The position numbers and the translations under genes were made by a program. From a virus (taxonomy: Duplodnaviria > Caudoviricetes), in the IMG/VR virus record IMGVR_UViG_2667527664_000002, positions 1 to 64,000 of that record: a DNA stretch of 64,000 bases; one strand, 5' to 3'. The notes beneath the pieces were generated by a model, which saw only the letters and a program-made list of their open reading frames with translations, did not search any database and was not told where the DNA came from. Positions 30,365-62,661 of the stretch are shown in pieces (position 1 is the first letter of the stretch; every line of letters starts with the position of its first letter).

Positions 30365-30437
30365 GTTCTCGCTTTTCTTATATAAATTACAAACTCATCT
30401 CTACTAGGTATTTTTTATCCTAACCTTAAAGATAAAC

Positions 30438-30569: not shown

Positions 30570-30583
30570 AGTTTCTATCACTC

Positions 30584-31267
30584 CTAATTTCCTTTTTTTG
30601 AACTTAACTTGTCTTTGCATATTTTATGTATATACTTCCAATATCCCTCGCTGCCTTTTGGTGATTTAATTGTTCCATCTTCAACAGATATATCTACTGC
30701 TAAAACTATACTTTTTAGTTCACTATCAGATAATTTATACATACCTTTTATACTATTCAAATCTGTGGATAAATTTACACTATTTACTCTATCAATAGAT
30801 ATAGTATTAGGATATGGTAATAGGGTCTTTTGTTCGGGATTTAAATCCGTACCGTAAGGATTTATATCCGTACCCTCGGGATTTATTTCCGATAGCTTCG
30901 GATTTAAATCCGATGTCCTATAGTTAGTATCTATTAATAATTTATAGTTTCTACCTAGAGCATAATAAGAATATGTCCCTCCTATTTTTACTGTTTTATG
31001 TTTTAATATTCCTATCTTACACATTTTCTTTAGTCTTCTATAAACTGTATCTTTTTTCATCTTTGTAATAGGTATATCCTCTGTTACACCATCATACTTA
31101 ATCCAATAATACTTATCATCTGAAATGATCTTTGATATCATTCTTTCACTATCTTTAAATTTTACAAACCATTTTAGTATCAACAGATCTCTATCATCTA
31201 ATTCAAGTTCTATTGCTTTTTCTTGGCTAAATCCATGTATGCTATACTCCAAGAAACTCACCCCCAC
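30584..31267 (-). CDS. Replication initiator protein (N-terminal wHTH, internal iterons)
   Basis: YYWIKY...TVYRRLKKM wHTH; linker region encodes DNA repeats. Confidence 0.75.
   Translation of the reverse strand: MGVSFLEYSIHGFSQEKAIELELDDRDLLILKWFVKFKDSERMISKIISDDKYYWIKYDGVTEDIPITKMKKDTVYRRLKKMCKIGILKHKTVKIGGTYSYYALGRNYKLLIDTNYRTSDLNPKLSEINPEGTDINPYGTDLNPEQKTLLPYPNTISIDRVNSVNLSTDLNSIKGMYKLSDSELKSIVLAVDISVEDGTIKSPKGSEGYWKYIHKICKDKLSSKKGN
30837..30912. repeat. Four iterons (phage origin)
   Basis: GGATTTAWWTCCG at 30837, 30858, 30879 and 30900; exact 21-bp period. Confidence 0.85.
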
Positions 31268-31406
31268 TTTATTTAAATCTATTAATTTATAAGTTTTTAC
31301 TTGTAGTTATATCTATCTACATATATAATTAAATTGGAATTTTTTATTTGGGTCCTCCTGGACTCTTTTTTTATTTTTATTAAATTAATGTTATGAAATA
31401 CTGTGT

Positions 31407-31529
31407 TTAACAATCTTGCTTGTCCTCTTTTTGCTTATTATATGCTTTTAATTCATCAAATTTATTATCTAGTTCTTGTCCTAAATAACTATATTTTTTC
31501 ATAAAACTTTGAAGTATTTTTATACTCAT
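31407..31529 (-). CDS. Unannotated 40-aa early protein MSIKILQSFMKKYSY...
   Basis: Manual translation; AAGGAGTG RBS. Confidence 0.45.
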   Translation of the reverse strand: MSIKILQSFMKKYSYLGQELDNKFDELKAYNKQKEDKQDC

Positions 31530-31568
31530 TTAACTCACTCCTTGTACAAATTTTCATTGCCAAAGAGC

Positions 31569-31835
31569 CTAAGCTCCTTGTTTATCGTTATATTCTTTAA
31601 TCGCTATTTCTTTAGCTTCTTCATAACTCAAACCAGTTTCTTCTAACTCCTTTGTTCTAATCCATATTGGGTAAGCTATACTCAATGCTTCATCCCCATA
31701 TTTTTCTCTTTGTCTATCAAGTATCCATTTAGCTTTTCTTCTTTCTATTTCCTCAATCCAATATGGATCTTCTGGGTAAACTACCTCAACTTTTATTTCT
31801 CTGCTTTTTCTTGGTGCCATTGCAACCACCCCCAC
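31569..31835 (-). CDS. Early hypothetical protein; candidate recombination directionality factor
   Basis: Small beta-then-helix protein just downstream of cro and antirepressor; function inferred from position only. Confidence 0.5.
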   Translation of the reverse strand: MGVVAMAPRKSREIKVEVVYPEDPYWIEEIERRKAKWILDRQREKYGDEALSIAYPIWIRTKELEETGLSYEEAKEIAIKEYNDKQGA

Positions 31836-31871
31836 TAAATTTTATGTTTATTAAAAATTGTCCTATGCAAT

Positions 31872-32441
31872 TTATCTTGATTTACTAACTTCCAAATCCA
31901 CTTTTACAGTAACTTTTGATTTTTCAAGTTCTTCTCTTTGTTCTGCTATTACAATTGTTTTGATATAATTTCTCAATCTTAAAACCTCTAACTCTTCTTC
32001 TTTTTGCTTTAAAAGAATTTCTTTGCTTTCTAGAGTTTTATTTAAAATTTTTACAGCTTTTTCTAAGATTATTTTTTCATCGTCTTCGTTGGATATTGGA
32101 ATATATCCACCAGTAAGTCGTATCTGTTTTAATATTTTCTTAATTTCCTTTTTTAACTTCTTAGCGATAGGTTTTCTACTTTGCATTAAAACTTCATAAA
32201 GTCCATCTTCTGTTAAAAACCAACTTACCCTATTATTAATTGGGTTAGCTTTTTTAACTTTTTCTTCATCATCTACAACTCTTAACATAGCACTTACATC
32301 TCTGTTTCCTTTACTATCAAATCCATACTCTATCCAATTCGCTACATCCTTTGCTAAAAATAGTGGTGTTTCTATCTCACCAAAAGTTATTATATTTTTT
32401 TCTAAAACTTTTCTTTTATCTAAAATTTTTAGATTATTCAT
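31872..32441 (-). CDS. BRO-N family antirepressor
   Basis: PLFLAKDVA...FLTEDGLYEVLMQSRKPIAK; AAGGTGGAG RBS. Confidence 0.88.
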   Translation of the reverse strand: MNNLKILDKRKVLEKNIITFGEIETPLFLAKDVANWIEYGFDSKGNRDVSAMLRVVDDEEKVKKANPINNRVSWFLTEDGLYEVLMQSRKPIAKKLKKEIKKILKQIRLTGGYIPISNEDDEKIILEKAVKILNKTLESKEILLKQKEEELEVLRLRNYIKTIVIAEQREELEKSKVTVKVDLEVSKSR

Positions 32442-32460
32442 ATGCTCCACCTTTCCTAAA

Positions 32461-32783
32461 TGTACTATTAGTACATTAGTCATTTAAAAAAATATCCTCT
32501 ATTGTAGTATCAAAAATTTTAGCTATTTTAAATGCTATATCTAATGATGGAGTTCTCTCTCCTTTCTCTAAGAACGCTATATACCTTGGTGTTACACCTA
32601 ATAATTCTCCTAATTGAGTCTGAGTCATCTTATTTATATTCCTCAAATATTTTATTTTATTCAATCTCCCTTCTCCTTTTTAATAATTGTTTATGTACTA
32701 ATAGTACAGTACTTTTAGTACATAGTCAATAGATTTTATAGATTTTATACGATATAATTTATATTGTTAGAACTTTTAGTTCA
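32461..32783. promoter_or_regulatory. Four repressor-operator palindromes (GWACTWWTAGTWC)
   Basis: 32461-32475, 32694-32708, 32708-32722 and 32769-32783, around the divergent cro/cI promoters. Confidence 0.75.
32476..32664 (-). CDS. Cro-like XRE HTH regulator
   Basis: MTQTQLGELLGVT...LEKGERTPS; divergent from the repressor. Confidence 0.88.
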   Translation of the reverse strand: MNKIKYLRNINKMTQTQLGELLGVTPRYIAFLEKGERTPSLDIAFKIAKIFDTTIEDIFLND

Positions 32784-32830
32784 TACTTAATGTCATTACC
32801 AATTTTAGAATAGAGAGTAGGTCGTTTTAT

Positions 32831-33241
32831 ATGATAGGTAAAAGAATAAAAGAGCTTAGAGCTCAAAAAGATGTAACTCAGAAAGAGTTAGCTGACTTTA
32901 TTGGACTAACTCCTAAAATGATATCATTTTATGAAAAGGAAGAAAGATTTCCTCCTCATGATATAATATTGAAATTATCTGATTTCTTCGATGTATCAAC
33001 AGATTATTTACTTGGAAAATCCAATGTACGTGATATTAAATCTAATGATAATTTAATTGTTATAAAAGAAAATGAAAAAGATGTAGAAGAATTATTAGAA
33101 GAAACTATGTCTCAAATTTTGGATCAAAAAGGTCTTATGCTTAATGGTCAAATAGTTGATGATAACGATCTTGTTCTTTTAAGAAATGCAATTAGAAATG
33201 GAATTGAATTAGCTAAAACTATGCAAAAGTCTAAGAAATAA
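32831..33241 (+). CDS. CI/ImmR-like XRE repressor
   Basis: RIKELR...TQKELA...FDVSTDYLLG. Confidence 0.9.
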   Translation: MIGKRIKELRAQKDVTQKELADFIGLTPKMISFYEKEERFPPHDIILKLSDFFDVSTDYLLGKSNVRDIKSNDNLIVIKENEKDVEELLEETMSQILDQKGLMLNGQIVDDNDLVLLRNAIRNGIELAKTMQKSKK

Positions 33242-33244
33242 GGG

Positions 33245-33703
33245 GTGTTAAATTTGAGTAGTATTAAAAATACAGTAAATAATTTAGTAACTAAGTTTAA
33301 AACAAGAAATCCATTTGAGTTATGTGACTACTTAAACATCCCTATTCTTCATGAGCCTTTAGGCAATATTAAAGGCTTCTTTCAAAATACACTTAATACT
33401 CCTATAATTCATTTAAATTCTAATTTAGATGAACATGAGATTAAGTGTGTTATTTCTCATGAGCTTGGTCATGCAATTTTACATAAAGATCTTAATGTTT
33501 GCTTTTTAAAGCACTATACATTTTCAGTTACAGATAGATATGAAAATGAGGCAAATAAATTCACAGCGGAGTTATTGATAGATGATAATATGCTTATCGA
33601 TTTTATGGAGGTAAATAATATAATTACAATTGATGAATTAAGTAAATACTTTTGTGTTCCTAAGGAATTTATCATATATAAATTTAAAACATTTTCTATA
33701 TAA
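33245..33703 (+). CDS. ImmA/IrrE-family metallopeptidase (anti-repressor)
   Basis: HELGH...ENEANKFTAELL; follows the repressor. Confidence 0.9.
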   Translation: MLNLSSIKNTVNNLVTKFKTRNPFELCDYLNIPILHEPLGNIKGFFQNTLNTPIIHLNSNLDEHEIKCVISHELGHAILHKDLNVCFLKHYTFSVTDRYENEANKFTAELLIDDNMLIDFMEVNNIITIDELSKYFCVPKEFIIYKFKTFSI

Positions 33704-33750
33704 AATAAAGAAGTATTAATTTTTTTAATTAATACTTCTTTATTTTATAT
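33699..33750. terminator. Bidirectional terminator between convergent genes
   Basis: ataaaataaagaagtattaatt...aattaatacttctttattttat. Confidence 0.75.
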
Positions 33751-33772
33751 AGATATAGTTTATATTGATAAC

Positions 33773-34825
33773 TTATCTAACATATCCTAAGTTAGTATTT
33801 GTCTCTCTAATTACATGTTCTAATTGTTGATTACTAATTTGTAAAAATCCTGGATATGCATCTCTATCTAATCCAATCTTATTTATTAAATCATGTCTAG
33901 TCATTCTTTTAGTTAGAGCTATATTATATGTCATTTTTATAGTAAAAAATTCATATCTACTATCATATAAGTTTTTTAACTCTGAATCCGTAAATATACT
34001 ATAATTTTTACAATATCTTTTATAATCTTCAAATGATGCAAAACTCCTGTTAGCTCTCACCTCATCAACTACACAAACACTAGTAGCTACAGATCTATAC
34101 TCTGCTTGACCTTCAATATCTGTAGATCTGTATATTAAGATATTATCTCCTTTCTTTAAACGATTCACACCTTTCATTCTGCATATATATATTTTTTCAA
34201 TACTATTAGTATGTGATACATCTTCTACTATATCAATTGATTCTGTATTTAATCTAGAATCTGGAAATAATCTAGTGTGATATTTAGGATATATAGATAA
34301 TAAATAAGCATCTGAATTTTTATCTATAATAGGGTAATTTTTTCTACAATCACTATTTTTTTCGCTTAAGTCTTTTAATAAAACCAACTCACATCCATCA
34401 CTAGTCTTCTTTTTACCATATTTCTTAAATCCATATTTCTCATAAAGTTTAATCAACCCTTCATGTTTACTAAATACAGTTACATATATATTTTTTATGT
34501 TATTCTTAATAGCAAAGTCTAAAGCCTTCTTTATGAAACGTTCTCCTAGTCTAGTTCCATGAGCATCAATCTTCATGGTACCTATCTTTACTACTCTATC
34601 ATAATTTATAATAGGTTCAACATCTGTTATAGGTTCTTCCTCTATTTTAAGATATAAAAAACCTTCTATTTTTCCATTTATAGTCTGTATATATGCCTTT
34701 TCATTTTTTTCTGATTTTCCATTAAACCATCCTTCAAATTTTGTATAATCAGTTTTAAGAGAATCGAAGAATGGGTCATTTAAGTTTATATCTTTAAAAC
34801 TCTCATATAAAAATCTATATTTCAT
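33773..34825 (-). CDS. GNAT acetyltransferase fused to a C-terminal PUA-like (ASCH/EVE) domain
   Basis: KIGTMKI..HGTRLGE and LYEKYGF GNAT motifs; LLSIYPKYH...IEKIYI...GDNILIYR C-terminal domain. Confidence 0.8.
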   Translation of the reverse strand: MKYRFLYESFKDINLNDPFFDSLKTDYTKFEGWFNGKSEKNEKAYIQTINGKIEGFLYLKIEEEPITDVEPIINYDRVVKIGTMKIDAHGTRLGERFIKKALDFAIKNNIKNIYVTVFSKHEGLIKLYEKYGFKKYGKKKTSDGCELVLLKDLSEKNSDCRKNYPIIDKNSDAYLLSIYPKYHTRLFPDSRLNTESIDIVEDVSHTNSIEKIYICRMKGVNRLKKGDNILIYRSTDIEGQAEYRSVATSVCVVDEVRANRSFASFEDYKRYCKNYSIFTDSELKNLYDSRYEFFTIKMTYNIALTKRMTRHDLINKIGLDRDAYPGFLQISNQQLEHVIRETNTNLGYVR

Positions 34826-35348
34826 TTATTATCCCCTCTATTTCTGTATTTTTTTTATCTGAAGTAATATTTATAAATTTTATAGGAATCTTTAGTTCCA
34901 TTGCCACTTTTTTAGCATACTCTGTTTCTTCTTTTTGAAAAGACTCTATAAGTTCAATATTATATTCTATATCGTCTCTTTCCTTTAACCTATCAAAAAT
35001 ATTAGTTTCTTTATCAACAAGCACTATTATGTAATCTATTCCTATACCTTTATAGGTTTCTATAGGTATCCTTGATATTTGCTCATTATTATTTAATAAA
35101 CAAAAATGACCATCAAGCATATAAACTTTCTTTTCAATAAACGTTTTCTTTATAGATTCTATAAGTAATTCTTGATTTGAACTTATATTAGTGGTCCTCT
35201 TGTTCGTAAATATTTCACCTTTTAATTTAGATATCAGCTCACTAGATGAATAGAATGGAATATTATTTTTTGAAGATATTTCTCTTGCAAATGTAGACTT
35301 GCCTACACCATGAATTCCACCTATAAAAATGATTTTTCTTTCTTCCAC
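34815..35348 (-). CDS. P-loop nucleoside/nucleotide kinase (AAA_17/18-like)
   Basis: GGIHGVGKST Walker A, LDGHF, RLKERD lid; overlaps the GNAT start by 11 nt. Confidence 0.82.
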   Translation of the reverse strand: MEERKIIFIGGIHGVGKSTFAREISSKNNIPFYSSSELISKLKGEIFTNKRTTNISSNQELLIESIKKTFIEKKVYMLDGHFCLLNNNEQISRIPIETYKGIGIDYIIVLVDKETNIFDRLKERDDIEYNIELIESFQKEETEYAKKVAMELKIPIKFINITSDKKNTEIEGIINEI

Positions 35349-35489
35349 AAATTTCGCCCCCTTTCTCGCATTAATTATAACATCGATAATATATTTTATT
35401 CAATATGTTATAATTTTTTATTATAAATTCTAAAAGTTGAGTTATAATATATATTTAACTTGTATTTAATTATATAGGAGGATTTTTTT

Positions 35490-35837
35490 ATGAAACATAT
35501 TATGCATTTAAAAAATGATTATTTTAATTTGATAGATAAAAACCTTAAATCTATAGAGTTGAGAATTTATGATCAAAAAAGAAGATTAATATCCGTAGGA
35601 GATAATATAGAATTTGTAAACTCACTTGATGCAAAAACTTCTATATTAGTTGAAGTTACAAATATAGAAATTTTTAGATCATTTAAAGATCTTATTGAAC
35701 ATACAGATAAAAAACTTCTCGGATGGGCCCATCTATCCGAAGATACTATATTGGATAAATTGAGAGAGATATATTCTATCGATGATGAAAATAAATTTGG
35801 AGTGGTTAAAATAACATTTAAAAAAATAGAAAGATAA
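35490..35837 (+). CDS. ASCH domain protein
   Basis: MHL...YFNLI...KSIELR...VGDNIEF; AGGAGG RBS. Confidence 0.8.
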   Translation: MKHIMHLKNDYFNLIDKNLKSIELRIYDQKRRLISVGDNIEFVNSLDAKTSILVEVTNIEIFRSFKDLIEHTDKKLLGWAHLSEDTILDKLREIYSIDDENKFGVVKITFKKIER

Positions 35838-35850
35838 CTATAATATCTTT

Positions 35851-36261
35851 CTATTTTTTTAAACCATTTATTTTATTTACTTTCTCAAAATCTCTTAGAT
35901 AGCAAAACGATTGTGGAGCTTTAAAATTTTCAATAATAATACTAGGTTCAACTGGTTTATCATAAACAATTAAATCTTTTATTTCTAAAGCATATGCCTT
36001 GTCATGATTAGAAAAATACTTGTTAAAATATTTTTGTGATATTCCCGATTCTCTATATGTTTTTTCCCAGACATTTTCTAAATCTCCATGCACAACATCT
36101 TTAACTTTAAACTCACCTATAAACATACCTACAGGTTTTGTTGCGTATATAATAACCGATTCAATATTTTGTTTAAATATTTTCTTTCTATACTCATATT
36201 TTTTTTCACCCGAAACAATTTTTTCAACAAACTCAGGTTTTATAGATAATATAGCTTTCAT
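35851..36261 (-). CDS. ASCH/PUA domain protein (COG4933-like)
   Basis: LSIKPEF...GEKKYEYRK...IYATKP...APQSFCYL. Confidence 0.85.
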   Translation of the reverse strand: MKAILSIKPEFVEKIVSGEKKYEYRKKIFKQNIESVIIYATKPVGMFIGEFKVKDVVHGDLENVWEKTYRESGISQKYFNKYFSNHDKAYALEIKDLIVYDKPVEPSIIIENFKAPQSFCYLRDFEKVNKINGLKK

Positions 36262-36383
36262 TAATGCACCTCTATCACTGAATTTTAATTTATTTATCTT
36301 ACTTAAATAGTATAGAACATATTTTCGGTTTTTTCAATATATGCTATATTTTAAATTAGAAGTTAATATATTTTTATTGAGAG

Positions 36384-37985
36384 GTGATAATATTGATTGC
36401 TGCAATATATTCAAGAAAATCAAAATTTACTGGAAAAGGTGAATCTATAGAAAATCAAATACAACTTTGCATGGACTATGCTAAGAACCTAGGAATAAAT
36501 GAATTTTTAGTATACGAAGATGAAGGTTTTTCTGGTAAATCTATGGATAGACCAAAGTTTAAAGAAATGCTTAAAGATGCTAAAGATAAAAAGTTTGATT
36601 ATTTAATATGTTATAGGCTAGATAGAATATCCCGTAATGTTTCTGACTTCTCTACTCTTATAGAAGATCTAAATAAGCTTAATATATCTTTCGTATCAAT
36701 TAAAGAACAATTTGATACTAGTACTCCTATGGGACGTGCTATGATGTATATATCATCTGTATTCGCTCAGTTAGAACGAGAAACTATAGCTGAACGTGTT
36801 AGAGATAATATGTATGAGTTAGCTAGAACTGGAAGATGGCTAGGAGGTATGCCTCCATATGGTTTTATTAGTACTCAAATTAACTACTATGATGAAAATA
36901 TGAACCAAAGAAAAATGTATAAACTTAAAGTTGATGAGGATACAATAGAAATTGTTAAATTGATATTTGATAAATATTTAGAGCTTAGATCACTTTCAAA
37001 GCTTTATAAATATATGTATGAGAATGGGATTAAAGGAAGTCGTGGAGGTAACCTTGATCCTAGTGCCTTATCTTTAATCCTAAAAAATCCAGCATATGTT
37101 AAAGCTGATAAAAGTGTAGTTGATTATCTAAGAAAGTTTAATATAGATGTTATGGGAGATATAGACAATATACATGGTATCCTAACTTATGCTAAAAATA
37201 CAGATAGTCCTATAGCTGCTGTTGCTAAACATAAAGGTGTTATAGACTCGAATAAATGGATTGAAGCACAAAGGCTACTTAATGCAAATAAGGCTAAAGC
37301 TCCTAGAGCTGGAACTGGAAGTAAGGCATTATTATCAGGTCTTTTAAAATGTTCTAAGTGTGGCTCTAATATGAGAATTACTTATAAAAACTCTAAAAGC
37401 GGCACTATTTATTATTACATATGTGGAACAAAGAAATCTTTAGGAGTATCAGCTTGCGATTGTAGAAATATCAGATCTGATAAGGCTGAATCTAAAGTTA
37501 TAGATGAATTAAAAAATAAAAGTATTAAATCTATAATGTCAAGTTATAAAGATAGCAAGTTAGAAAACTCTAAGAATAGTAAAAATATAAAAACTGAGAT
37601 AAACTCAATAAATAATCAAATTAAAGAAAAGGAAACATACATTGATAATTTAGTTATGCAATTAGCCAAGGTTACCGAAAGCTCTGCATCTACTTTTATA
37701 ATCAATAAATTAGAATCTTTAAATAATGACTTATCTAATTTAAAATCACAATTAGAATCTTTAAATACTATGTCTATGGAAAATAAGCAAGTTGATATTA
37801 ATATAAATATGCTTATAGATAATTTAAATAAATTCAATAAAGAAATTGATACCTCTGACATCAATAAGAAGAGACTGTTACTATCTACAGTAGTAGATTA
37901 CATGACATGGGACTCTGATACAGACACAATAAAAGTAAACCTAATAGGTATCAATCCAAGCAATACTATAACTTCAGATAAATAG
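36384..37985 (+). CDS. Large serine recombinase (prophage 1 integrase)
   Basis: YSRKS catalytic Ser, DEGFSG...RP, YRLDRISR, recombinase domain, CSKCG Zn ribbon, coiled coil. Confidence 0.95.
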   Translation: MIILIAAIYSRKSKFTGKGESIENQIQLCMDYAKNLGINEFLVYEDEGFSGKSMDRPKFKEMLKDAKDKKFDYLICYRLDRISRNVSDFSTLIEDLNKLNISFVSIKEQFDTSTPMGRAMMYISSVFAQLERETIAERVRDNMYELARTGRWLGGMPPYGFISTQINYYDENMNQRKMYKLKVDEDTIEIVKLIFDKYLELRSLSKLYKYMYENGIKGSRGGNLDPSALSLILKNPAYVKADKSVVDYLRKFNIDVMGDIDNIHGILTYAKNTDSPIAAVAKHKGVIDSNKWIEAQRLLNANKAKAPRAGTGSKALLSGLLKCSKCGSNMRITYKNSKSGTIYYYICGTKKSLGVSACDCRNIRSDKAESKVIDELKNKSIKSIMSSYKDSKLENSKNSKNIKTEINSINNQIKEKETYIDNLVMQLAKVTESSASTFIINKLESLNNDLSNLKSQLESLNTMSMENKQVDININMLIDNLNKFNKEIDTSDINKKRLLLSTVVDYMTWDSDTDTIKVNLIGINPSNTITSDK

Positions 37986-37999
37986 GAACTTTAATACAT

Positions 38000-38191
38000 T
38001 TATCTGAAGCTATTTCTATGTCAGATAAGGTCGCAGTTTTATCCAAACGTCCTGCATCTATAAAAAGTATCTATAATATAGATTTAAAAATATCAGAAAC
38101 TAGAACTCCTATAATATCAAGAAGTGCTGAAAATTTTAAAGACTATTTTAATATCTTGTGGAAGGAGATTGATTCTAGTGAAACAAAATAA
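38000..38191 (+). pseudogene. Orphan 3' end of an ABC transporter ATP-binding gene (YtlC/TauB-like), split by prophage 1
   Basis: Manual translation LSEAISMSDKVAVLSKRPASIK...FKDYFNILWKEIDSSETK*, the segment that normally follows the H-loop (VTHD); no start codon or N-terminus; overlaps the permease start. Confidence 0.82.
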
Positions 38192-38981
38192 TGTATCACA
38201 AGGTCATAAACAATATTTAAAATTGCTAAAAAAAGAAAAGAATCTAATCTTTTTTTATCAAATATTTATATTGGTTGGATTTATAGCTCTTTGGGAATTA
38301 CTTGCTAGACTTAATATAATAGATGTATTTCTATTTAGCAAACCTAGTGATATTTACAATCTTTTTATAAAATATATTCAAAATGGAGAATTATTTAAGC
38401 ATATATTAATATCTAGCTATGAGACAATAGTTGGATTAGCAGTTGGTACAATTCTTGGAATATTAGTAGCTATAATGCTTTGGTGGTCAGAAAGATTGTC
38501 TAAAATACTTGATCCATTTTTGGTTGTACTAAATGCACTTCCTAAAACAGCATTAGCACCAATTTTAATAGTTTGGGCTGGAGCTGGTGTAAATGGAATA
38601 ATAGTTATAGCTATTACTATATCTGTTGTTGTTACTATATTATCCGCCTATAATTATTTTATAAGTGTTGATGAGGAAAAAGTCAAAATGCTTAAAAGTT
38701 TTGGAGCATCAAAACTTCAAATTCTTACAAAATTAATATTTCCTTCTAACATAGGAAATTTAATAAATTTAACTAAAATTAATATAGGTATGGCTTGGGT
38801 TGGCGTAATAGTAGGTGAATTCTTAGTATCTAGATATGGTCTTGGGTACTTAATAGTTTATGGTGGCCAAGTTTTCAAATTAGATTTAGTAATGATGGGA
38901 GTAATAGTATTAGCCCTTTGTGCTTTAATTATGTATCAAGTTTTAAATATAGCAGAAAAAATTTATAAAAGTAAAAGATAA
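38178..38981 (+). CDS. NitT/TauT-family ABC transporter permease (YtlD-like)
   Basis: LNALPKTALAPIL, EAA-like loop KSFGASK, GVIVGEFL; AAGGAG RBS before GTG 38178. Confidence 0.9.
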   Translation: MKQNNVSQGHKQYLKLLKKEKNLIFFYQIFILVGFIALWELLARLNIIDVFLFSKPSDIYNLFIKYIQNGELFKHILISSYETIVGLAVGTILGILVAIMLWWSERLSKILDPFLVVLNALPKTALAPILIVWAGAGVNGIIVIAITISVVVTILSAYNYFISVDEEKVKMLKSFGASKLQILTKLIFPSNIGNLINLTKINIGMAWVGVIVGEFLVSRYGLGYLIVYGGQVFKLDLVMMGVIVLALCALIMYQVLNIAEKIYKSKR

Positions 38982-38997
38982 AATTTAATATAAAAAC

Positions 38998-39048
38998 AAA
39001 ATAACTGAGTTCAAGTTTGTTATAAACAGGCTTGAGCTCAGTTATTTT
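38998..39048. terminator. Bidirectional terminator
   Basis: aaaataactgagttcaag...cttgagctcagttatttt. Confidence 0.75.
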
Positions 39049-39861
39049 TTATATATTACAATATCCTATTATTTCATAATCTGTTGGTATGTCATAATTT
39101 CTATTACCGTTTTCTAAAATCCATTTTAAATCAAACATAGTTGTATCAATTATTAATGAAAAGTATAGCATAACTATCCCTACATCAACTTTACCTTCAT
39201 ACTCACTTGCAAATTCATCTTTTCTTACTGCAAGAATCACTTTGCCTCCATCAATTATAAATCTCCAAGGTTGTCTATTTAATGTAGATGGTGCCATTCT
39301 AGCAAAACTAAATGCATCTAATAATCCTCTTTCTTCTAATAATTCTATGGTTGCATTTTCTCCCCATTTATCTAGATAAACTATCTTTTCTACTCCTAAT
39401 CTAGATGAATCACCAGTAGCTGATTTAGTTTTTACAGTATCTCCATAACCTAGTGCAATAATTGCTGTAACTTCCTTATCTGATAAAATTTCAAGCTTTT
39501 CTTTTATAAGTGAACTCTCTTTAAAGGTAACCCAACATGAGTCGATTCCTAAGTCCATGGCCTTTAGAGTTAAGTTTTCTCCTATATATCCTGAATTTTC
39601 TATGTATCCTTTATATGTATCAGATAAAATGATTACATAGTTTGGTGCTTCTATCATATGTCCATTATATCCTGCTATTTTATCAAGTTTTGGATATAAT
39701 TTATCTTTATTAAAAACTTTAACTTCAGTACTTATTTCTGGTACAAGTTTTTTAGACATATTTATATATTCTTCTATTATTCTGAAATCTGATTTTTTTA
39801 TTTCTTGATTTTTAAATTTCCTTACTGACCTTTTATTGGATATAAGATATTTGTAATTCAT
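39049..39861 (-). CDS. Nitroreductase family protein (host)
   Basis: KRSVRKF, GIDSCW, APSTLNRQPWRF. Confidence 0.88.
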   Translation of the reverse strand: MNYKYLISNKRSVRKFKNQEIKKSDFRIIEEYINMSKKLVPEISTEVKVFNKDKLYPKLDKIAGYNGHMIEAPNYVIILSDTYKGYIENSGYIGENLTLKAMDLGIDSCWVTFKESSLIKEKLEILSDKEVTAIIALGYGDTVKTKSATGDSSRLGVEKIVYLDKWGENATIELLEERGLLDAFSFARMAPSTLNRQPWRFIIDGGKVILAVRKDEFASEYEGKVDVGIVMLYFSLIIDTTMFDLKWILENGNRNYDIPTDYEIIGYCNI

Positions 39862-40032
39862 AATTTCCCCTCCCTAAAGTTATATTAAATTTTATTTTAT
39901 ATTTTTTATACCCAAAACCAACATAAAGCAAACATTTTCCCGGTAAATATAGTATTTTTACAAATATCTAAAATAGTTTTATCACCAATCAATTTATTTT
40001 TTAATAATATACATTATCTTTAATTTCAAGGG

Positions 40033-40590
40033 GTGATTTTTTTGCTAAAAAAATTAATAATATTAATAACTTTAATTACTAGCCTATCTTTGCTTCTCAT
40101 TGGATGTACTCCTAAATCTAAAAGTATTAAATCTAAAAATTTAACTAAGCTAACTGTTGCAGAGGTAACCCATTCGGTATTTTATGCTCCACAATATGCA
40201 GCTATAACTCAAGGTTTTTTTGAGGAAGAAGGTATTGAGTTAGACCTTATAAATACTCAGGGAGCAGATAAAACAATGGCTGCACTTCTTTCTGGAGAAG
40301 CAGATATAGGACTTATGGGACCAGAAGCATCTATTTATGTGTATAATAAAGGGAATTCAAATTATGCAGTAAATTTTGCGCAATTAACTCAAAAAGATGG
40401 AAGCTTTTTAGTTACTCGTGAAAATACTGATAGTTTTTCTTTTGAGGATTTAAAAGGTAAAGAGGTTTTAGGTGGTAGAAAAGGTGGGGTTCCTGAAATG
40501 ACATTAGAGTATGTTATGAAAAAAAATGGTCTAACTATAGGAACTGATACTCAAAACGATAAAGTAAACGTTAGAACCGATATTCAATAA
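40033..40590 (+). pseudogene. 5' part of a NitT/TauT (YtlA-like) ABC substrate-binding lipoprotein, truncated by prophage 2
   Basis: Lipobox LIGC; EVTHSVFYAPQY, GLMGPEAS, GGRKGGVPEM; stops at VRTDIQ after 185 aa (family members are roughly 330 aa), then phage-type accessory genes follow. Confidence 0.85.
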
Positions 40591-40700
40591 TCAGTTTTAT
40601 GATAGCAGTTAATATTTTTAATACATAAAAAATAAAAAGTAAGATAGTGTAAACAACTACCTTACTTTTTATTTTATCATAACATTTAATCAATATTAAA

Positions 40701-41225
40701 TTAAAGAAATATTTTATCTTCTTTAATAATTTCTTTTTCGTCTTCTTTAGGTAGTATTATTCTATTTAATTCTTCAACAAATGAAGTCCAATGTAAACTA
40801 GCTCCTACAATTTCAAAACTAAGTATTTTCAACTCATTATCTAAAGATTTATAGTTTATAATAATGTAATTTTTAGATTTAGTTTTAGACTTAGTTTTAG
40901 TCCCTATACCTGACATACCACCAACAATAGCACCTAAAGGACCTAATAGTACTCCCCCAATGGCAGCTCTTCCAATTACGCTTTTATCCTTTTCTTTTTC
41001 TAAAATTTCTTTCTCGCTAGCAACCGTAACCCCAACTAGTCGATCCATATCTATACTTACTTCTGGTAAATGTTTATGTACCCTAGGCCTAATTGTTAAA
41101 TAATTTGTATCGAGTTCTATGCTTAATGCAATAGCTGTTCCTTTAACATATCCAGGAATACCATCTATAAATGTTAAATTTACAGATCTATCTCCATTTT
41201 TATTCTTTTTTGTAAATATGCCCAT
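40701..41225 (-). CDS. Prophage accessory protein with a glycine-zipper membrane hairpin
   Basis: GRAAIGGVLLGPLGAIVGG motif; own promoter and terminator (40627-40676). Confidence 0.7.
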   Translation of the reverse strand: MGIFTKKNKNGDRSVNLTFIDGIPGYVKGTAIALSIELDTNYLTIRPRVHKHLPEVSIDMDRLVGVTVASEKEILEKEKDKSVIGRAAIGGVLLGPLGAIVGGMSGIGTKTKSKTKSKNYIIINYKSLDNELKILSFEIVGASLHWTSFVEELNRIILPKEDEKEIIKEDKIFL

Positions 41226-41452
41226 AGTATTCTCCTTAAGTATATTTTTTACTAAAATTATACATTATATCCCATATTTTTACAAATAACAGTATTAAAT
41301 TTGAATAATGAATAAAACAAATGAAATTCAATTGTATTTAATCCTATACATACAATCTATAAAACTCTTATTTACCTCAATTTAACATATTGGTATTTTT
41401 TGTAATAAAAATTTATGTTATTATAAATATAGAATTATATAGGAGGGATATT

Positions 41453-42031
41453 ATGAAAAAAGGGTTAATCGGTATATTAAGTAGTATTGTCATTTTAGGC
41501 TCTGGATTTTTTATAAGTAATATGAATACATCAAATAAAGATGTACATAAAAATGGAAAACCTAAACATGAAAAAGTATTAAAAGAAGAAAAGAATAAAA
41601 AAGAAGTTAAGAAAGACGATTCTAAAAAAATAGAAAAAGATAAAGATATTGTTGAAAAGACAACAGAAAATAATAAAAAAGATAATAAGTCCAACTCTAA
41701 AAATATAGAAAAAGACAAAGATATTGTTGAAAAGACAACAACAAATAGTAGAAATACAAATTCTGTAGAAATCAAAACAGAAACTTCTAAAAATAAAAAA
41801 CCTGTAGAAACACCACAAGCTGAAGTAAAACATAAAGTTATAGAAAGTACAAATATAGAAAAAAATATAAACCAATCGGATGATAAAAACATTCAAAAAC
41901 ATGCTGAAACATCACTAGAAAAAACAATTCCTCAAGAAGAAAACATCCCTTGTGATAATTTTGATACACCTGAATTTGATAATCATGTCGTAGACGTAAG
42001 TAATGATATAGGAACACACCCATCACACTAA
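41453..42031 (+). CDS. Membrane-anchored/secreted low-complexity K/E/N-rich protein
   Basis: AGGAGG RBS before ATG 41453; N-terminal hydrophobic helix; internal 36-bp duplication (41630-41665, 41705-41740). Confidence 0.7.
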   Translation: MKKGLIGILSSIVILGSGFFISNMNTSNKDVHKNGKPKHEKVLKEEKNKKEVKKDDSKKIEKDKDIVEKTTENNKKDNKSNSKNIEKDKDIVEKTTTNSRNTNSVEIKTETSKNKKPVETPQAEVKHKVIESTNIEKNINQSDDKNIQKHAETSLEKTIPQEENIPCDNFDTPEFDNHVVDVSNDIGTHPSH

Positions 42032-42320
42032 GGACCTAGATTTCAATTAAAAAATAAAAGCAACAATACAAATAATTGTAGTATAGTTGCTTTTTATTAA
42101 TACGAGTCGTAGGTAAATTAAATCACATACAACGAGATTAATATTATTATATCAATAATTTTACTTACAAATAATTAGTATACGAACTCTATAAATATAA
42201 TCATTTTTTCTTACTATTTTTATTTTTCAAAAACTTCCATATATTACAAAAAATTTACACAAAAATAGTTTATTTTAATGTAATATTAAAATACATATTA
42301 AAACTAAAGGGGTGTTTTGA

Positions 42321-42797
42321 ATGAGTATTATGAAAAACGTTAGAAAAACTTTTGTTTTAGCATTGGTAGGTATCACGATATCTACACCTATTCTAGGAAC
42401 TGTATATGCAGCAGAAGAATCAATTAATAGTTCAAATATAGTTCAAAAACAATCAACTACAGATTTAGATGAAATTTCGAATTACTTTGGTTTGACGTAT
42501 AAAGAAAAAAGACAATTAAGTCAAGCTATAAATGATTACAAATTAGAAACTGAAAATACGATACAACCTAGAGGTAAAATAAGTTGGATATCAAAAGCAG
42601 TTAGAAAAATCTGGAGAAAATTACCCTTTAAAGTAAGACAAACTATAACTGCATATGTAGGATTAGAATCGTTTTTAAATGCTATAGACCACTATACAGG
42701 TACAGTAGAAAATGTAATATATAAAGCTTGTAAAAAAGTAGGGATGAACAATGATGTTGCTTGGTGGGTAACAAAAACAATTACTTTGTTTATATAG
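42321..42797 (+). CDS. Secreted bacteriocin-like precursor, homolog of 2645..3166
   Basis: Signal ending VYA; QPRGK junction; shared RKIWRKLPFKVR, YKACKK and WWVTKTITLF blocks. Confidence 0.72.
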   Translation: MSIMKNVRKTFVLALVGITISTPILGTVYAAEESINSSNIVQKQSTTDLDEISNYFGLTYKEKRQLSQAINDYKLETENTIQPRGKISWISKAVRKIWRKLPFKVRQTITAYVGLESFLNAIDHYTGTVENVIYKACKKVGMNNDVAWWVTKTITLFI

Positions 42798-42806
42798 GGT
42801 AACAAT

Positions 42807-43034
42807 ATGATAATAAATATTATTTTAATAATAGTTAGTATAATAAATATAGTTTTAAATTTTGAAGAAAAAAAAGATAATAATACATATGTTGCATATG
42901 GATCATTATTAATAATAAATACCTTACTTTTATTTAAAGTAAAAAATATTATATTAAATATAATACTTTTAATATTTATTATAGTGTTTTTAATTACAAT
43001 AATTAAAGCTTTGATAAATAGAAGAAAGAAATAA
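42807..43034 (+). CDS. Small three-TM putative immunity protein
   Basis: Directly downstream of the precursor; hydrophobic with a basic tail; terminator at 43047-43112. Confidence 0.6.
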   Translation: MIINIILIIVSIINIVLNFEEKKDNNTYVAYGSLLIINTLLLFKVKNIILNIILLIFIIVFLITIIKALINRRKK

Positions 43035-43392
43035 GGATAAACATTAAAAAATAAAAGGCAAAATTCCTATTCATCATCGTATGATCTATAGGAATTTTGC
43101 CTTTTATTTTTAATAAGCTAAAGAATTTAAAAATTTAGTAAATATATTGATATATAAGCATAAAAGATGGAGTTTCATGCCGTTTTTTATAAACCCTTGT
43201 ATTTCCAATGATTTTCAATGATATATATACTCTATGTCAGTCATTTGACAGTACACAAAAGTTATCAACAGAAATTACATGACTTATCAACATATTTTTT
43301 AAAGTTATTAACAATTATATAGATAGTAAAAGTATGCTCCTAAGGAGTGTATTTTTTTGGAAAAAATAAGAAAAAGTTTATGAAAAGTATCG

Positions 43393-43418
43393 ATTATATC
43401 ACGTATACGTGATATAAT
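43393..43418. promoter_or_regulatory. Perfect 26-bp palindromic operator overlapping a -10 box
   Basis: ATTATATCACGTA/TACGTGATATAAT; TATAAT at 43413-43418. Confidence 0.75.
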
Positions 43419-43443
43419 ATAAATATAGAAAGGAGGTAAGGAA

Positions 43444-43554
43444 ATGGTCAAAAAAATAAAAGAGTTCACGAAAGTGATTAAAGCACTTACGGAACTCGCA
43501 CTTGAAATAGGAACTCTAGTAGCAATCATCAAAATGATACTAGAAAGCCTATAA
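43444..43554 (+). CDS. Unannotated 36-aa amphipathic peptide MVKKIKEFTKVIKALTELALEIGTLVAIIKMILESL
   Basis: Manual translation; AAAGGAGGT RBS; GC-rich hairpin after the stop (43559-43587). Confidence 0.75.
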   Translation: MVKKIKEFTKVIKALTELALEIGTLVAIIKMILESL

Positions 43555-43602
43555 AACATAAGGGTGGTGTTCCTACCACCACCCTTACTTTTATAATAAT
43601 AC

Positions 43603-43737
43603 ATGACCATTTTAATTACAATGAAAAATAATAAAAAAGAATTAGTAAAAAGTGTAATTGGTTTAACTTTAGCTTTAATTAAATTTATAGGAGCTATAGC
43701 TCTTGTAGTATTAGCATTAAAATATTTATTTTCATAG
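43603..43737 (+). CDS. Unannotated 38-44-aa membrane peptide (MTILIT)MKNNKKELVKSVIGLTLALIKFIGAIALVVLALKYLFS
   Basis: Manual translation; TATAAT at 43592-43597 lies 5 nt before ATG 43603 (leaderless geometry); stop overlaps the next RBS. Confidence 0.6.
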   Translation: MTILITMKNNKKELVKSVIGLTLALIKFIGAIALVVLALKYLFS

Positions 43738-43748
43738 GAGGGAAAACT

Positions 43749-43937
43749 ATGTGTAGCTTTAAAGGATTATATTCATTTGCAGAGGCAACTAAATTATGGG
43801 GGTTAAAAGATTCTACACTAAGAAAGGCAGTTGAAACTGGAAAATTAATAGCTGATGAAGATTGTAAAAAGTTTGGTAGAGATTGGGTTGTAAAAGAAAG
43901 TGCAATGGTTAGAGAATATGGAGAAAAAAAGGAATAA
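43749..43937 (+). CDS. Small excisionase/MerR-like HTH DNA-binding protein
   Basis: SFAEATKLWGL..STLRK...KKFGRDWVV; GGAGG RBS. Confidence 0.8.
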   Translation: MCSFKGLYSFAEATKLWGLKDSTLRKAVETGKLIADEDCKKFGRDWVVKESAMVREYGEKKE

Positions 43938-43946
43938 AGTAAGCAA

Positions 43947-44242
43947 TAAAAAAAGGAGTACCAGTTGGTTTTGGTACTCCCTAATGGAAATTGTATGCCA
44001 TATTTTTTATTTTTTAATAACTTTTATTGTATTCTATTCATAGAGGTATCATATATACCAGTATACTATTGAAAATCTGTAATCCAAGTAAGCCTTCTAT
44101 CTTCTATGTGGAGAGCACACTTTAAGGGATAATAATTAAAAAGGACTATAACCCATTTAGTTCCTTATATATTAACCGAAATTTCTGCTCATTCATTAAT
44201 TATTATCCCTACATTATATATATGAATGTTTTACAACTTTGT
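43947..44242 (-). ncRNA. Candidate sigma-K-driven structured RNA (~265 nt)
   Basis: AC-N16-CATATATA (44217-44242); perfect 15-bp stem 44125-44139/44196-44210; terminator 43947-43981. Confidence 0.4.
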
Positions 44243-44254
44243 TATATATTTTTA

Positions 44255-45133
44255 TTATTTTTTTATAACTTGTACTTGTATTCCTTCCATAGGTTTACCA
44301 TATATACCTGCATAATCATTTAAATCTATAACCCAAGGAAGCCATCTACTTCCAACGTATGCTCTATATTGAATACTATAGTTATCTAATCCAATTAATT
44401 GCATTTCTAAAGCATCTATATTTTTACTTAATATACCAGCATAATCCTGTCTATCAGTAACCCAAGGAAGCCATTTACCATCTATTGTATGAACTCTGTA
44501 TCTTATAGAACCTTTACTTAAATTAGCATACACCCCTTGCATGGGTTTACCATATATACCAGCATAATCTTCTAAATTAACTACATTAGGAAGCCATTTA
44601 CCTTTTGCATAGACTTGATAAGTTACATCAATATCTGTATTTATAGTGACACTTTCAGAGCTTCCAACTAATCTATTTTTAAAATTCCACCATCTAGCCC
44701 AATTATTATCATGAAAAGCAGATGGACAATCTTTTCTAGATGCATCATAGTGTCTTACAACATGATCTGAATCTATACCATATTTATTCATAAGATGTTT
44801 TGTTAACACTAAAGTATTTTCTACTGTTTTTTCTGAGATTCTTCCGTTATCAGTCCCACACATTTCTATAGCTATAGAATTTCTATTATTTATACCATAT
44901 CTATTATTACCATCTCCACAATGCCAAGCACCGTTATATTCTTCTACCACTTGATATATTTCATTATCATCTACAAAATAATGTGCTGATGCATTTCTAT
45001 TACCTCCATAGAAATAATCAGCATTATTCTTTGCAGTGTCGTTTATGTTGCCAGTATAATGTATTACAATATACTCTACGTTATTTCCTTCATAGTGATT
45101 ATATGGACTTATTTTTCTTTTTATATTTAACAT
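44255..45133 (-). CDS. Endolysin, Amidase_2 with C-terminal cell-wall-binding repeats
   Basis: IVIHYTG, ASAHYFVD, AWHCGD, RHYDASRKDCP; 3x WLPxV...DYAGI repeats. Confidence 0.92.
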   Translation of the reverse strand: MLNIKRKISPYNHYEGNNVEYIVIHYTGNINDTAKNNADYFYGGNRNASAHYFVDDNEIYQVVEEYNGAWHCGDGNNRYGINNRNSIAIEMCGTDNGRISEKTVENTLVLTKHLMNKYGIDSDHVVRHYDASRKDCPSAFHDNNWARWWNFKNRLVGSSESVTINTDIDVTYQVYAKGKWLPNVVNLEDYAGIYGKPMQGVYANLSKGSIRYRVHTIDGKWLPWVTDRQDYAGILSKNIDALEMQLIGLDNYSIQYRAYVGSRWLPWVIDLNDYAGIYGKPMEGIQVQVIKK

Positions 45134-45309
45134 CTTGATACCTCCAAAATTTATATTTGTATATTTTAAAAGGCAATAAAAAAAGACTTCAAAGAGTCTA
45201 ATTAACCGCCTTTTGTTTAACTTGATTTAAAATTATTATTAATTTATATATAATTTACAAATAATTTATATATAAATTTTGTAAACTTTATTATTAAATT
45301 TTTTATAAA

Positions 45310-45528
45310 TTATTTATTATCTTTTAAGCCTTTTGTTGAAGGGTCTACAACTACACCAACTAATGCTGCTATAACAGCTACAACAGCAACTGGATTAGCT
45401 AATATACTCAACAAAGCTTCTCCTAATAAGTTCCAACTTGTTAAAGTTTTAAAATCAATTCCAGCTGATGAAAATATAACTCCACCTAAACCTAACCAAA
45501 AATATGGATTTTTTAATCTACTTTTCAT
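45310..45528 (-). CDS. Holin (near-identical to 6140..6358)
   Basis: RLKNPYFW...GVVVDPSTKGLKDNK. Confidence 0.85.
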   Translation of the reverse strand: MKSRLKNPYFWLGLGGVIFSSAGIDFKTLTSWNLLGEALLSILANPVAVVAVIAALVGVVVDPSTKGLKDNK

Positions 45529-45817
45529 ATATAATCTCTCCTTTTGTTTTTTCTATTGTATCTATTCTGTGATGTGCTGATTTAGTGCTTTCTTCAACTT
45601 TTATAAGCCTTTCTATGACATTACTTATTTTTGTATCTTGAGCTTTTATATCAAGCCTTATATCATCAACTCCTTTACTTATGTAATCTAACTTTGTAGC
45701 AACTACTGTTTTTTGTGATGCATCATCTTCTATATCTTTTTCATTCTTCTTTTTATAACTCATATAGCCTAGCATGGCACCAGCTATAGTACAGAGCAAA
45801 GTAATCTCTATGTTCAT
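45518..45817 (-). CDS. Lysis-associated XhlA-like protein (near-identical to 6348..6644)
   Basis: GGAGG before ATG 45817; VEESTKSAHHRID. Confidence 0.7.
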   Translation of the reverse strand: MNIEITLLCTIAGAMLGYMSYKKKNEKDIEDDASQKTVVATKLDYISKGVDDIRLDIKAQDTKISNVIERLIKVEESTKSAHHRIDTIEKTKGEIIYEK

Positions 45818-45872
45818 ATATCCTCCTAAAAATTGCATAAAAATAGAACTATCTTTTATAGTCCTTCATTAT

Positions 45873-46058
45873 TTATTGTCTATCTTCAGTTATCTTTATC
45901 GGTAAATTACTAGTAGGCTTGTCATAATCTTCGCCAGTTATTTCTTTAAACTGTTCTTTTGATATTCTTTCAGCTTCAACAAATAACCTAACATCATCAA
46001 CCTTATATATTTTTAAATCAAAATATTTCTTTGCCATTTCAAAATACCATTTATCCAT
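45873..46058 (-). CDS. xkdX: XkdX family protein
   Basis: FVEAERISKEQFKEITGEDY. Confidence 0.8.
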   Translation of the reverse strand: MDKWYFEMAKKYFDLKIYKVDDVRLFVEAERISKEQFKEITGEDYDKPTSNLPIKITEDRQ

Positions 46059-46554
46059 TTAAATTACCTCCTAATGATTTTAATATTAGATTAGCAACAT
46101 CTTTTTCTATGCCTTTAACTTGTATATCTTTATTAACTAAATTTAAAGTTGTTTGAGCCATATTAGTATTTAAATTATTTATTTCAATATCTTTGTTAAT
46201 TGATTTTAAAGTTGCTTGTGCTAAGTTTATATTTAATTCTTTAATTTGAATATCTTTTTCTAGACTTTCTTTTATTAAAAATGCATTTTGTTTTTCTAAT
46301 AAATCAGTTCTAGTTTGTTTTGGCTTCTTATATTCAAAAGGAATTATTTCAAATATATCTTTATCTTCAATTGTATAAAGTTCTTTTAGTTCGAAGTTTT
46401 CTTTTAATTTAAAATCATTTGTTAAAGACCTTAGATATTCCCATAATTGTTGATTAATCATTATATTAGGGCTATGAACAATTTCATTATATTCATCTAA
46501 ATAGAATCCATTAAAAGTAAAACTATCTTCTTTATAATGTAAATAAATTTTCAC
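46051..46554 (-). CDS. Tail-fibre-associated coiled-coil protein
   Basis: Repeated KDIxI...AQxTL units; GGAGG before GTG 46554; between fibre and XkdX. Confidence 0.6.
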   Translation of the reverse strand: MKIYLHYKEDSFTFNGFYLDEYNEIVHSPNIMINQQLWEYLRSLTNDFKLKENFELKELYTIEDKDIFEIIPFEYKKPKQTRTDLLEKQNAFLIKESLEKDIQIKELNINLAQATLKSINKDIEINNLNTNMAQTTLNLVNKDIQVKGIEKDVANLILKSLGGNLNG

Positions 46555-46565
46555 TTTAGAACCTC

Positions 46566-62660: not shown

Positions 62661-62661
62661 A

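Follow-up and report, generated by a model that had tools for sequence, protein, structure and literature searches.

The DNA analysed here, referred to below as the window, makes up the initial 64 kb of one provirus record of 79,910 bp (IMGVR_UViG_2667527664_000002), which starts inside the cargo of one prophage (prophage 1) and ends at the stop codon of the large serine recombinase (LSR) of another (prophage 2). Between them lies a 2.6-kb island of host DNA, flanked on both sides by complete, unrelated siphophage prophages according to PHROGs, and this island was shown to be the remainder of one NitT/TauT-type (YtlACD-like) ATP-binding cassette (ABC) importer locus of a Paraclostridium-group host. 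A preliminary description had proposed that each prophage splits a gene of the same ABC transporter; Pfam, PHROGs, tblastn and the comparison with relatives all bear this out, and the anatomy of the window, with two phages and two split genes, can be considered practically certain. The recombinases of prophage 1 (LSR-1) and prophage 2 (LSR-2) are 24% identical, and the DNA of the two prophages has only five short patches in common. Both recombinases match the PHROG integrase phrog_95, and the catalytic-serine motif AIYSRKS is invariant in the LSR alignment (A1).

LSR-1 is a protein of 533 aa, encoded at 36384..37985 on the plus strand, with the Pfam domains Resolvase (PF00239), Recombinase (PF07508) and Zn_ribbon_recom (PF13408). 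Its stop codon lies 14 bp ahead of a frame (38000..38191, +) that has no start codon at its 5′ end, encodes the post-H-loop part of a ytlC-like ABC ATPase and overlaps an intact permease gene, an arrangement already described from the letters of the sequence and now confirmed by tblastn and Pfam. From 38000 to 38188 (stop at 38191) this 3′ piece matches residues 188-250 of the intact 250-aa ATPase of a relative (L006) at 84% identity (tblastn, E 5.6e-31), and the cut falls just after the H-loop (VTHD|I). The attachment site on this side, attR of prophage 1 (37986..38002, +), consists of a phage arm ...GGAACTTTAATACATT with host sequence from ~38001, and the crossover is probably the TA at 38001-38002. 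Homology to eleven relatives begins at 37996-38018 in all eleven and at 37998 in eight of them (blastn), and the arms of the ATPase-site attP in relatives form an imperfect palindrome, GTTGCACTTT...AAAGTGCAAC. All five Paraclostridium-group loci whose open reading frames (ORFs) were read have an intact ATPase gene.

On the other side of the island, the 5′ piece of an NMT1/THI5-like, ytlA-like substrate-binding protein (SBP) gene was found at 40033..40590 (+; Pfam NMT1), with a likely TTG start at 40042. This piece corresponds to residues 21-187 of a 345-aa relative (tblastn, E 4.7e-91) and, as had been pointed out, stops at VRTDIQ where prophage 2 begins: the stop codon is contributed by the phage arm, and intact relatives go on with FNVLSGAF (VRTDIQ|FNV). 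The attL of prophage 2 (40585..40620, +) has the core CAA(T) at 40585-40588, followed by the phage arm TAATCAGTTTTATGATAGCAGTT. The same arm type is found at attL in three other loci (L083, L084 and L085), and the mirror arm AACTGTTATCATGAAACTGATAACCAA at attR in L086 and L088. When the attL and attR sequences of L083-L088 and of the window are combined, the SBP-site attP reads AACTGTTATCATGAAACTGATAACCAA|TAATCAGTATTATGATAACAGTT, an imperfect palindrome with core CAA. In the Paraclostridium-group loci the SBP gene is intact in two of five (L006, L007) and cut at the same ...NVRTD[IV]Q in the other three (L002, L003, L005).

The ytlD-like permease gene between the two sites (38124..38981, +; Pfam BPD_transp_1) corresponds to CD1904 of Clostridioides difficile, and its product shows 85-89% amino acid identity to that of Paraclostridium-group relatives and 67-69% to homologs in Epulonipiscium. 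A nitroreductase-like gene (39049..39861, -; Pfam TM1586_NiRdase), which the preliminary description had not mentioned, lies convergently between the permease and SBP genes; it is variable at this position among relatives and was considered a bystander. In L003 and L007 it is absent from between them and the SBP gene directly follows the permease gene, which indicates that the ATPase, permease and SBP genes form one transporter locus. By Pfam and NCBIfam, too, the locus combines an NMT1/THI5-like SBP with a BPD_transp_1 permease and the cognate ATPase, and in one source a homolog is named "NitT/TauT family transport system substrate-binding protein". The name YtlA itself was not recovered by search, the top 120 homologs carrying generic names and the ESM Atlas returning generic NMT1 clusters. 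As for the substrate, NCBIfam gave only sub-threshold SsuA/Sao-type matches, and no riboswitch or other RNA clue was detected by Rfam near the transporter in L006 and L007, a glycine riboswitch and a group II intron being located elsewhere. The YtlACD likeness is an indirect one, drawn from the ytlC annotation in C. difficile, the ytlA/C/D genes reported for Epulopiscium and the permease homologs of Epulonipiscium.

In silico joining of the split genes and recurrence of both sites

The window itself shows one junction per phage, and tblastn searches with the full ATPase and the full SBP gave no match for the missing ATPase 5′ part or the missing SBP 3′ part elsewhere in the 79,910-bp contig. 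With the att sites of relatives and near-identical contigs of other strains, precise joining at the core was shown in silico to restore both the ATPase and the SBP frame, as had been anticipated. Both SBP halves are present on one contig in two genomes, separated by 41.5 kb in G003 and by 19.4 kb in G002, and joining at the CAA core of these sites (attB, attL and attR aligned) gives ...VRTDVQ|FNVLSGAF. For the ATPase site, one RNA library (X14) contains, over 37400-38035, an LSR-1/attR contig (depth 58.8) as well as an intact-ATPase contig (depth 43.8), which merge at 38001-38035. The latter carries the intact ATPase junction (...TTAGTTACCCATGATA|TATCTGAAG, also written ...GTTACCCATGATA|TATCTGAAG), which encodes VTHDISEA. 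In the same library, whose contigs leave the permease region without cover, a contig continues after 40588 with TTAACGTCATGAGTGGTGCATTTGCTGGAG, corresponding to an intact SBP gene. The co-occurrence of both ATPase forms is due either to a mixture of strains or to excision in some of the cells.

The family survey comprised 112 genomes of Peptostreptococcaceae. Among the best 150 ATPase matches, at least 22 of the 112 genomes matched with the 5′ part only, ending a few codons after VTHDI; for one of them (G086) this may be a contig break. Homologs of LSR-1 were found in 29 genomes, and of the 30 loci fetched, 11 have the ATPase tail and the permease directly after the recombinase, the LSR-1 homologs of these 11 loci all being 53-67% identical to LSR-1. 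Six other loci with an LSR identity of 53-66% showed no tail within the short flank fetched, which past the recombinase match ends within 10 nt in L119 and within ~70 nt in L113, and an ATPase tail after the recombinase was seen in none of the 13 fetched loci with an LSR identity below 52%. The SBP gene is present as two halves in 14 of the 112 genomes, with the break at residue ~186/179. LSR-2 (509 aa; contig 78381-79910, outside the window) ends the record at its stop codon, and in L086 and L088 the SBP 3′ half is immediately preceded by homologs with 79% and 70% identity to it. The LSR of the SBP-gene island of C. difficile likewise immediately precedes the SBP 3′ half, and its identity is 56% to LSR-2 and 23% to LSR-1. 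Each site is thus tied to one LSR lineage, LSR-1 after the H-loop codons of the ATPase gene and LSR-2 in the middle of the SBP gene, and in relatives both LSR/attB pairings are conserved across the Peptostreptococcaceae with interchangeable cargo. The integration hotspot suggested earlier is in this way extended to two sites recurrently used across the family. Among the deposited-phage matches listed, the best was Terrisporobacter phage TPELB_ph1 for LSR-1 (48%) and TVCOM_ph1 for the L086 homolog of LSR-2 (51%), and no close deposited phage was found for either lineage.

The cargo of these elements is varied, including elements of 19-54 kb, some of them prophages. Among the matches listed, both genes are split, as in the window, in six Clostridioides-type genomes (G010-G015), and only the ATPase gene in two others (G009, G016). 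In six Clostridioides-type genomes the ATPase gene carries an island of ~18.5 kb with the ethanolamine (eut) operon, and in two others (G013 and G015) a 4.3-kb mini-element composed of a prfC-like gene, a 58-aa ORF and the LSR. The SBP-gene island of C. difficile measures 8.8 kb and contains an ABC-2 exporter, an extracytoplasmic function (ECF)-type sigma factor, PadR- and AraC-type regulators and the LSR.

Some further observations were made on these loci. The prfC-like gene (peptide chain release factor 3) is the sole sizeable cargo of the mini-element (L165, G013:C1:2579500-2587000, positions 1286-5617), and a very similar gene is present in P. bifermentans (L002:11188-12789), between the permease and nitroreductase genes. 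In L104 (G092:C1:640000-659999), L106 (G078:C5:1070000-1089000), G074 and G075 a truncated ATPase 5′ copy ends in an attL-like junction and is followed by a 6-20-kb element and then by a full-length ATPase gene with a near-identical 5′ region. No LSR was present among the ORFs read for the L104 and L106 elements, the latter containing runs of N at ~5750-7170 and 10540-11060. Such pairs could be left over from a duplication, or the element could bring in a 5′ part as a replacement.

Selection on the pieces, sporulation control and prophage gene content

Pairwise dN/dS, the ratio of nonsynonymous to synonymous substitutions, was estimated according to Nei-Gojobori for the eight Clostridioides-type genomes G009-G016, in which the largest dS values were ~0.4 (ATPase pieces), 0.5 (permease) and 0.8 (SBP 3′ half and LSR). 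Median values were 0.036 for the ATPase 5′ part, 0.040 for the permease, 0.086 for the SBP 5′ half, 0.048 for the SBP 3′ half and 0.151 for the LSR, and ~0 for the start-less ATPase tail of 56 codons, where dN was ~0 at a dS of 0.06-0.41. The pieces of the eight genomes contain no internal stops. Divergence of the LSR follows that of the permease (r = 0.91, a value reached by six of 5000 permutations), and the island is therefore old and has been inherited vertically with its host since the lineages split. Long and strong purifying selection on pieces that cannot be translated by themselves argues that the genes are regularly rejoined and used. The alternative that the truncated proteins suffice leaves the constraint on the start-less tail and on the SBP 3′ half unexplained.

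The earlier statement that the transporter resembles YtlA/C/D of B. subtilis, which are expressed late in the mother cell, agrees with the published data. A table in PMC3416734 lists B. subtilis ytlA/C/D under sigma-K, and the same source reports ytlA/C/D for Epulopiscium. In C. difficile 630, CD1927 ("ytlC"), CD1904 and CD1891 are given as sigma-K-dependent by PMC3789822, the supplement of which lists mapped sigma-K promoters for CD1927 and CD1891 and none for CD1904 itself; feoA/feoB (CD1518-CD1517) are sigma-K-dependent as well according to this source. In the loci fetched, both the ATPase 5′ part and the SBP gene have the promoter strings of this supplement upstream, letter for letter. The ATPase promoter block, GGTACAAA ... 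TAATAnnATAA, was recognized by eye, without counting, in most of the upstream regions of 56 relatives. CD1904 lies ~18 kb from the CD1927 promoter, across the oppositely oriented eut genes, and its sigma-K dependence without a listed promoter of its own would fit co-transcription after excision. The gene order puts the recombinase CD1905, one of the seven cloned in PMC2784873, next to eutG, eutP being CD1909. In its accessible text, PMC3789822 does not comment on the split genes and mentions rearrangement for sigK only.

Mother-cell expression is thus documented for the C. difficile orthologs, and what the window offers is a promoter-like motif at the homologous place. This sigma-K-type motif, AC-N17-AATAATATA (39984..40011, +), lies 31 nt upstream of the SBP start and has the position and build of the mapped CD1891 promoter. 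Assignment of a sigma factor by the motif alone was rejected (three matches for 1.29 expected); it carries weight only via homology to the mapped promoters.

A candidate for the small protein that would assist the recombinase in excision was found within prophage 1. In all eight Clostridioides-type islands a 56-58-aa ORF is located divergently, ~290-380 nt upstream of the LSR, and an 88-aa ORF of the window (31569..31835, -) is its homolog (38% identity, E 1.9e-6, alignment A2), a relative being present in G018 too; the 88-aa ORF gave no PHROG match. Directly upstream of it lies a promoter-like block, CATAGGACAA-N11-CATA (31843..31867, -), which has a single match in the window and none in 100 shuffles. 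This short AT-rich motif can be read as ATA-N17-CATAAAAT, a mother-cell promoter of the sigma-E type according to the rule of a -35 ATA and a -10 CATA taken from PMC3789822. The same AGGACAA-N11-CATA block is shared by the homologous small ORFs, those of the eight islands included, and across the small-ORF family, which co-occurs with the LSR-1 lineage, the upstream block takes the form ATA/ATC-N17/18-CATA. On the model of CD1234 in skinCd and SprB in SPbeta, as these are described in PMC5025042 and PMC5595907, we propose the small-ORF family as candidate recombination directionality factors (RDFs).

As regards the phages themselves, prophage 1 (1..37999, -; at least 38 kb) is of the siphovirus type and extends leftwards past the start of the record, so that its left end and attL fall outside; the left part holds cargo and lysin, the right part the lysogeny module and the LSR. 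PHROGs identified the small and large terminase, portal, protease, major head protein, connectors, major tail protein, tape measure, Dit, endolysin, a repressor with ImmA and an anti-repressor. Near the late-gene regulator and far from the att end, a tyrosine-integrase-like ORF of 182 aa (26725-27273, -; phrog_216, E 6e-65) is possibly a second, truncated recombinase-like gene. Prophage 2 (40589..64000 and on to contig position 79910, -; ~39.3 kb), also of the siphovirus type, has PHROG matches for endolysin, tail fibre, tape measure, major head protein, scaffold, portal, terminase, RecE/RecT, DnaD-like protein, RusA, a repressor with ImmA and the LSR. Between its terminase and late regulator (contig 66474-68492; L142:6474-8492, -), a 673-aa protein that matched only phrog_18297 (unknown function) shows by eye a P-loop-like GMGKST and may be a defence or exclusion gene. 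The left-end cargo of both prophages (946-1452, 2645-3166, 3592-4923 and 42321-42797) includes a Sie-like zinc-ribbon protein, an SLH-domain protein with Ig-like and CAP domains, and two paralogous ORFs, one per phage, with an N-terminal hydrophobic stretch and a common C-terminal block ...RKIWRKLPFKVR...WWVTKTITLF.

Proposed developmental excision and its alternatives

The explanation that we consider best, with a probability of about 0.5, combines LSR-mediated integration with developmental double excision. Two temperate siphophages have integrated into the importer locus, each by means of its own LSR, the gene for which sits at its element's right end, a few bases before the 3′ gene piece. 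With ATPase and SBP truncated, the importer should be off in the lysogen, and the vegetative loss of a late mother-cell function would cost little. During sporulation, the LSR and a small directionality factor would excise each element in the terminal mother cell, and the importer would return only after both genes had been rebuilt, as a logical AND, while the germ-line copy in the spore would stay lysogenic. The phages of the window would in this case play a double role like that of SPbeta in spsM, lytic induction on the one hand and developmental excision on the other. Two-step excision is supported indirectly, by the constraint on the split pieces, by the recurrence of the double split in six Clostridioides-type genomes and by the small ORF conserved beside the LSR. 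Taken separately, developmental rejoining appears rather probable for the Clostridioides islands; for the two phages of the window, where it would turn the importer into a two-input switch, its chances seem a little short of even. In its broadest form the proposal, put forward tentatively, is that two LSR lineages use the late mother-cell (sigma-K) importer as a landing pad throughout the family and that programmed excision of both elements, full phages in the case of the window, rebuilds it in the mother cell during sporulation.

Several observations weigh against this developmental explanation, and many of them would equally suit ordinary lysogeny at two favoured attB sites, the main rival, in which conserved coding sequence serves as a landing pad and the importer is knocked out and comes back only on loss or induction of the prophage, with no developmental programme; we regard this as a serious possibility, if a somewhat doubtful one. 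Both prophages look complete and inducible, so that their position may be a matter of ordinary lysogeny, LSR phages commonly integrate within genes, and the two sites host many different elements and are unoccupied in many relatives. Double occupancy would then arise since a second hit in a dead system costs nothing, and it is in fact phylogenetically clustered (one Clostridioides clade, G092 and the species of the window) and not statistically above chance given shared ancestry. No excision product tied to sporulation was seen in the data, which consist of contigs only; the intact ATPase and attR in X14, where the SBP gene is intact, may simply come from two strains, which contigs cannot tell apart from excision. 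With attL of prophage 1 and attR of prophage 2 lying outside the record, rejoining was demonstrated only with relatives and contigs of other strains. The candidate RDF is situated inside the phage early region, and the motifs from which its promoter is read are short and AT-rich; the AC-N17-AATANTATA motif at the SBP gene, with three matches in the window for 1.29 expected, is by itself not above chance. The orthology with B. subtilis YtlACD is presumptive, and homologs of the transporter also occur in apparent non-spore-former lineages, such as Acholeplasmatales and Staphylococcaceae metagenome-assembled genomes. A full-length ATPase accompanies the truncated copy in at least four genomes (G092, G074, G075, G078), and the permease of G015 (L110, 3243-4090) is in two frames, owing to either a frameshift or a sequencing error, as the sole broken piece among the eight genomes. 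What ordinary lysogeny does not readily accommodate is the state of the pieces: the Clostridioides-type split is old, its LSR tracking the host, yet all pieces show a dN/dS of 0-0.09 without stops, and sigma-K promoters drive their transcription. Such constraint, which extends to the start-less tail and the start-less SBP 3′ half, is not what a dead system should show.

The same constraint bears on the idea that the truncated proteins still work and that the importer is independent of excision. Walker A, signature, Walker B, D-loop and H-loop are all contained in the ATPase 5′ piece, which is cut just after VTHD and is itself under purifying selection; however, the start-less tail of 56 codons is strongly constrained too and would need translation within a joined gene, the SBP is cut at residue 187 of 345 and lacks its second lobe, and the C-terminal tails encoded by the elements differ from one another, which makes this idea very unlikely. 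An artefact of assembly or provirus calling, in which prophages and island are not contiguous in any real genome, could be suspected for a cut-out provirus ending exactly at a stop codon. Against this, a single independent contig of run X4 spans 37400-41200 at ~98% identity and thereby reproduces the whole arrangement of the window, contigs of X1 and X2 cover 37400-40588 and 40560-41200, and the junctions coincide precisely with att sites that serve in other genomes, so that an artefact is hardly conceivable.

A few sporulation genes, among them sigK, spsM, gerE and yabG, are known to be rejoined developmentally by LSR elements, and the kind of system proposed here is in this sense already represented by skin, SPbeta, gin and yin. 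The Clostridium perfringens phage PhiS63 has reportedly been described as a functional sigK-intervening phage; among the deposited phages listed, its LSR is 42% identical over the full length to the L086 homolog of LSR-2, an identity that does not place the two in the same specificity group, and its attB in sigK differs from the SBP site. The Listeria comK prophage is said to be a case of active lysogeny with a different integrase type and infection as the cue. As in that case, the prophage would act as a reversible switch on a host gene, the likely cue here being sporulation and two switches acting on one system.

A close parallel is SPbeta in spsM of B. subtilis, with the LSR SprA and the RDF SprB, where, as far as described in PMC4191935 and PMC5499854, a complete LSR phage splits a late mother-cell gene, as it does here, precise excision rebuilds the gene and the sporulation-specific expression of the small RDF, which the LSR requires, sets the timing. 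The target of SPbeta is a polysaccharide-synthesis gene, whereas here it is an ABC importer, two genes of which are occupied by two unrelated phages, and the RDF is a candidate and excision at sporulation is what we infer. The skinCd element in sigK of C. difficile (LSR CD1231 and RDF CD1234) belongs to the same bacterial family; according to PMC5025042, its LSR lies immediately upstream of the 3′ piece and sigma-E/SpoIIID control of the small RDF gene confines excision to the mother cell. The Clostridioides islands likewise have their LSR next to the 3′ piece, and in them a conserved small ORF is preceded by a block of the CATA type; in contrast to skinCd, the interrupted genes are sigma-K targets and not sigK, the cargo includes a whole eut operon, and excision of the islands is proposed. 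Finally, gin in gerE of Bacillus cereus ATCC 10987 (GirC and GirX) is presented in PMC5595907 as a non-phage LSR element excised during sporulation, which together with the phages shows that viral and non-viral elements can share this strategy, as they do at both sites here. Unlike gin, which has three recombinases and a single target, each site considered here has one LSR lineage and very diverse cargo.

In a search made largely without subscription journals, no literature was found on an LSR element in a ytlC-like ATPase or SBP gene, nor on the eut operon as an LSR island, and ethanolamine is not mentioned in PMC3158075. New with respect to the literature found are therefore the target, the pairing of sites, the interchangeability of phages and metabolic islands as cargo and the location of the C. 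difficile eut operon inside such an element. Our results add to the known cases a target system with two separate, lineage-specific sites that are used by phages and metabolic islands alike, and purifying selection on long-split pieces provides independent evolutionary evidence that split genes are still in use. They also draw attention to facts on C. difficile 630 that were published and left uncommented, namely the three sigma-K-dependent "fragment" genes, CD1905 beside eutG and CD1904 without a listed promoter. Should developmental rejoining prove not to take place, two well-defined and reusable LSR/attB pairs would remain. If it does take place, skin would no longer be the only developmental DNA rearrangement of C. 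difficile, the eut island and the exporter/ECF-sigma island being the second and third, and the carriage of prophages or islands would be coupled to a late spore function by a two-input switch. The mother cell would then discard the eut operon late in sporulation, giving the position of this operon a developmental meaning.

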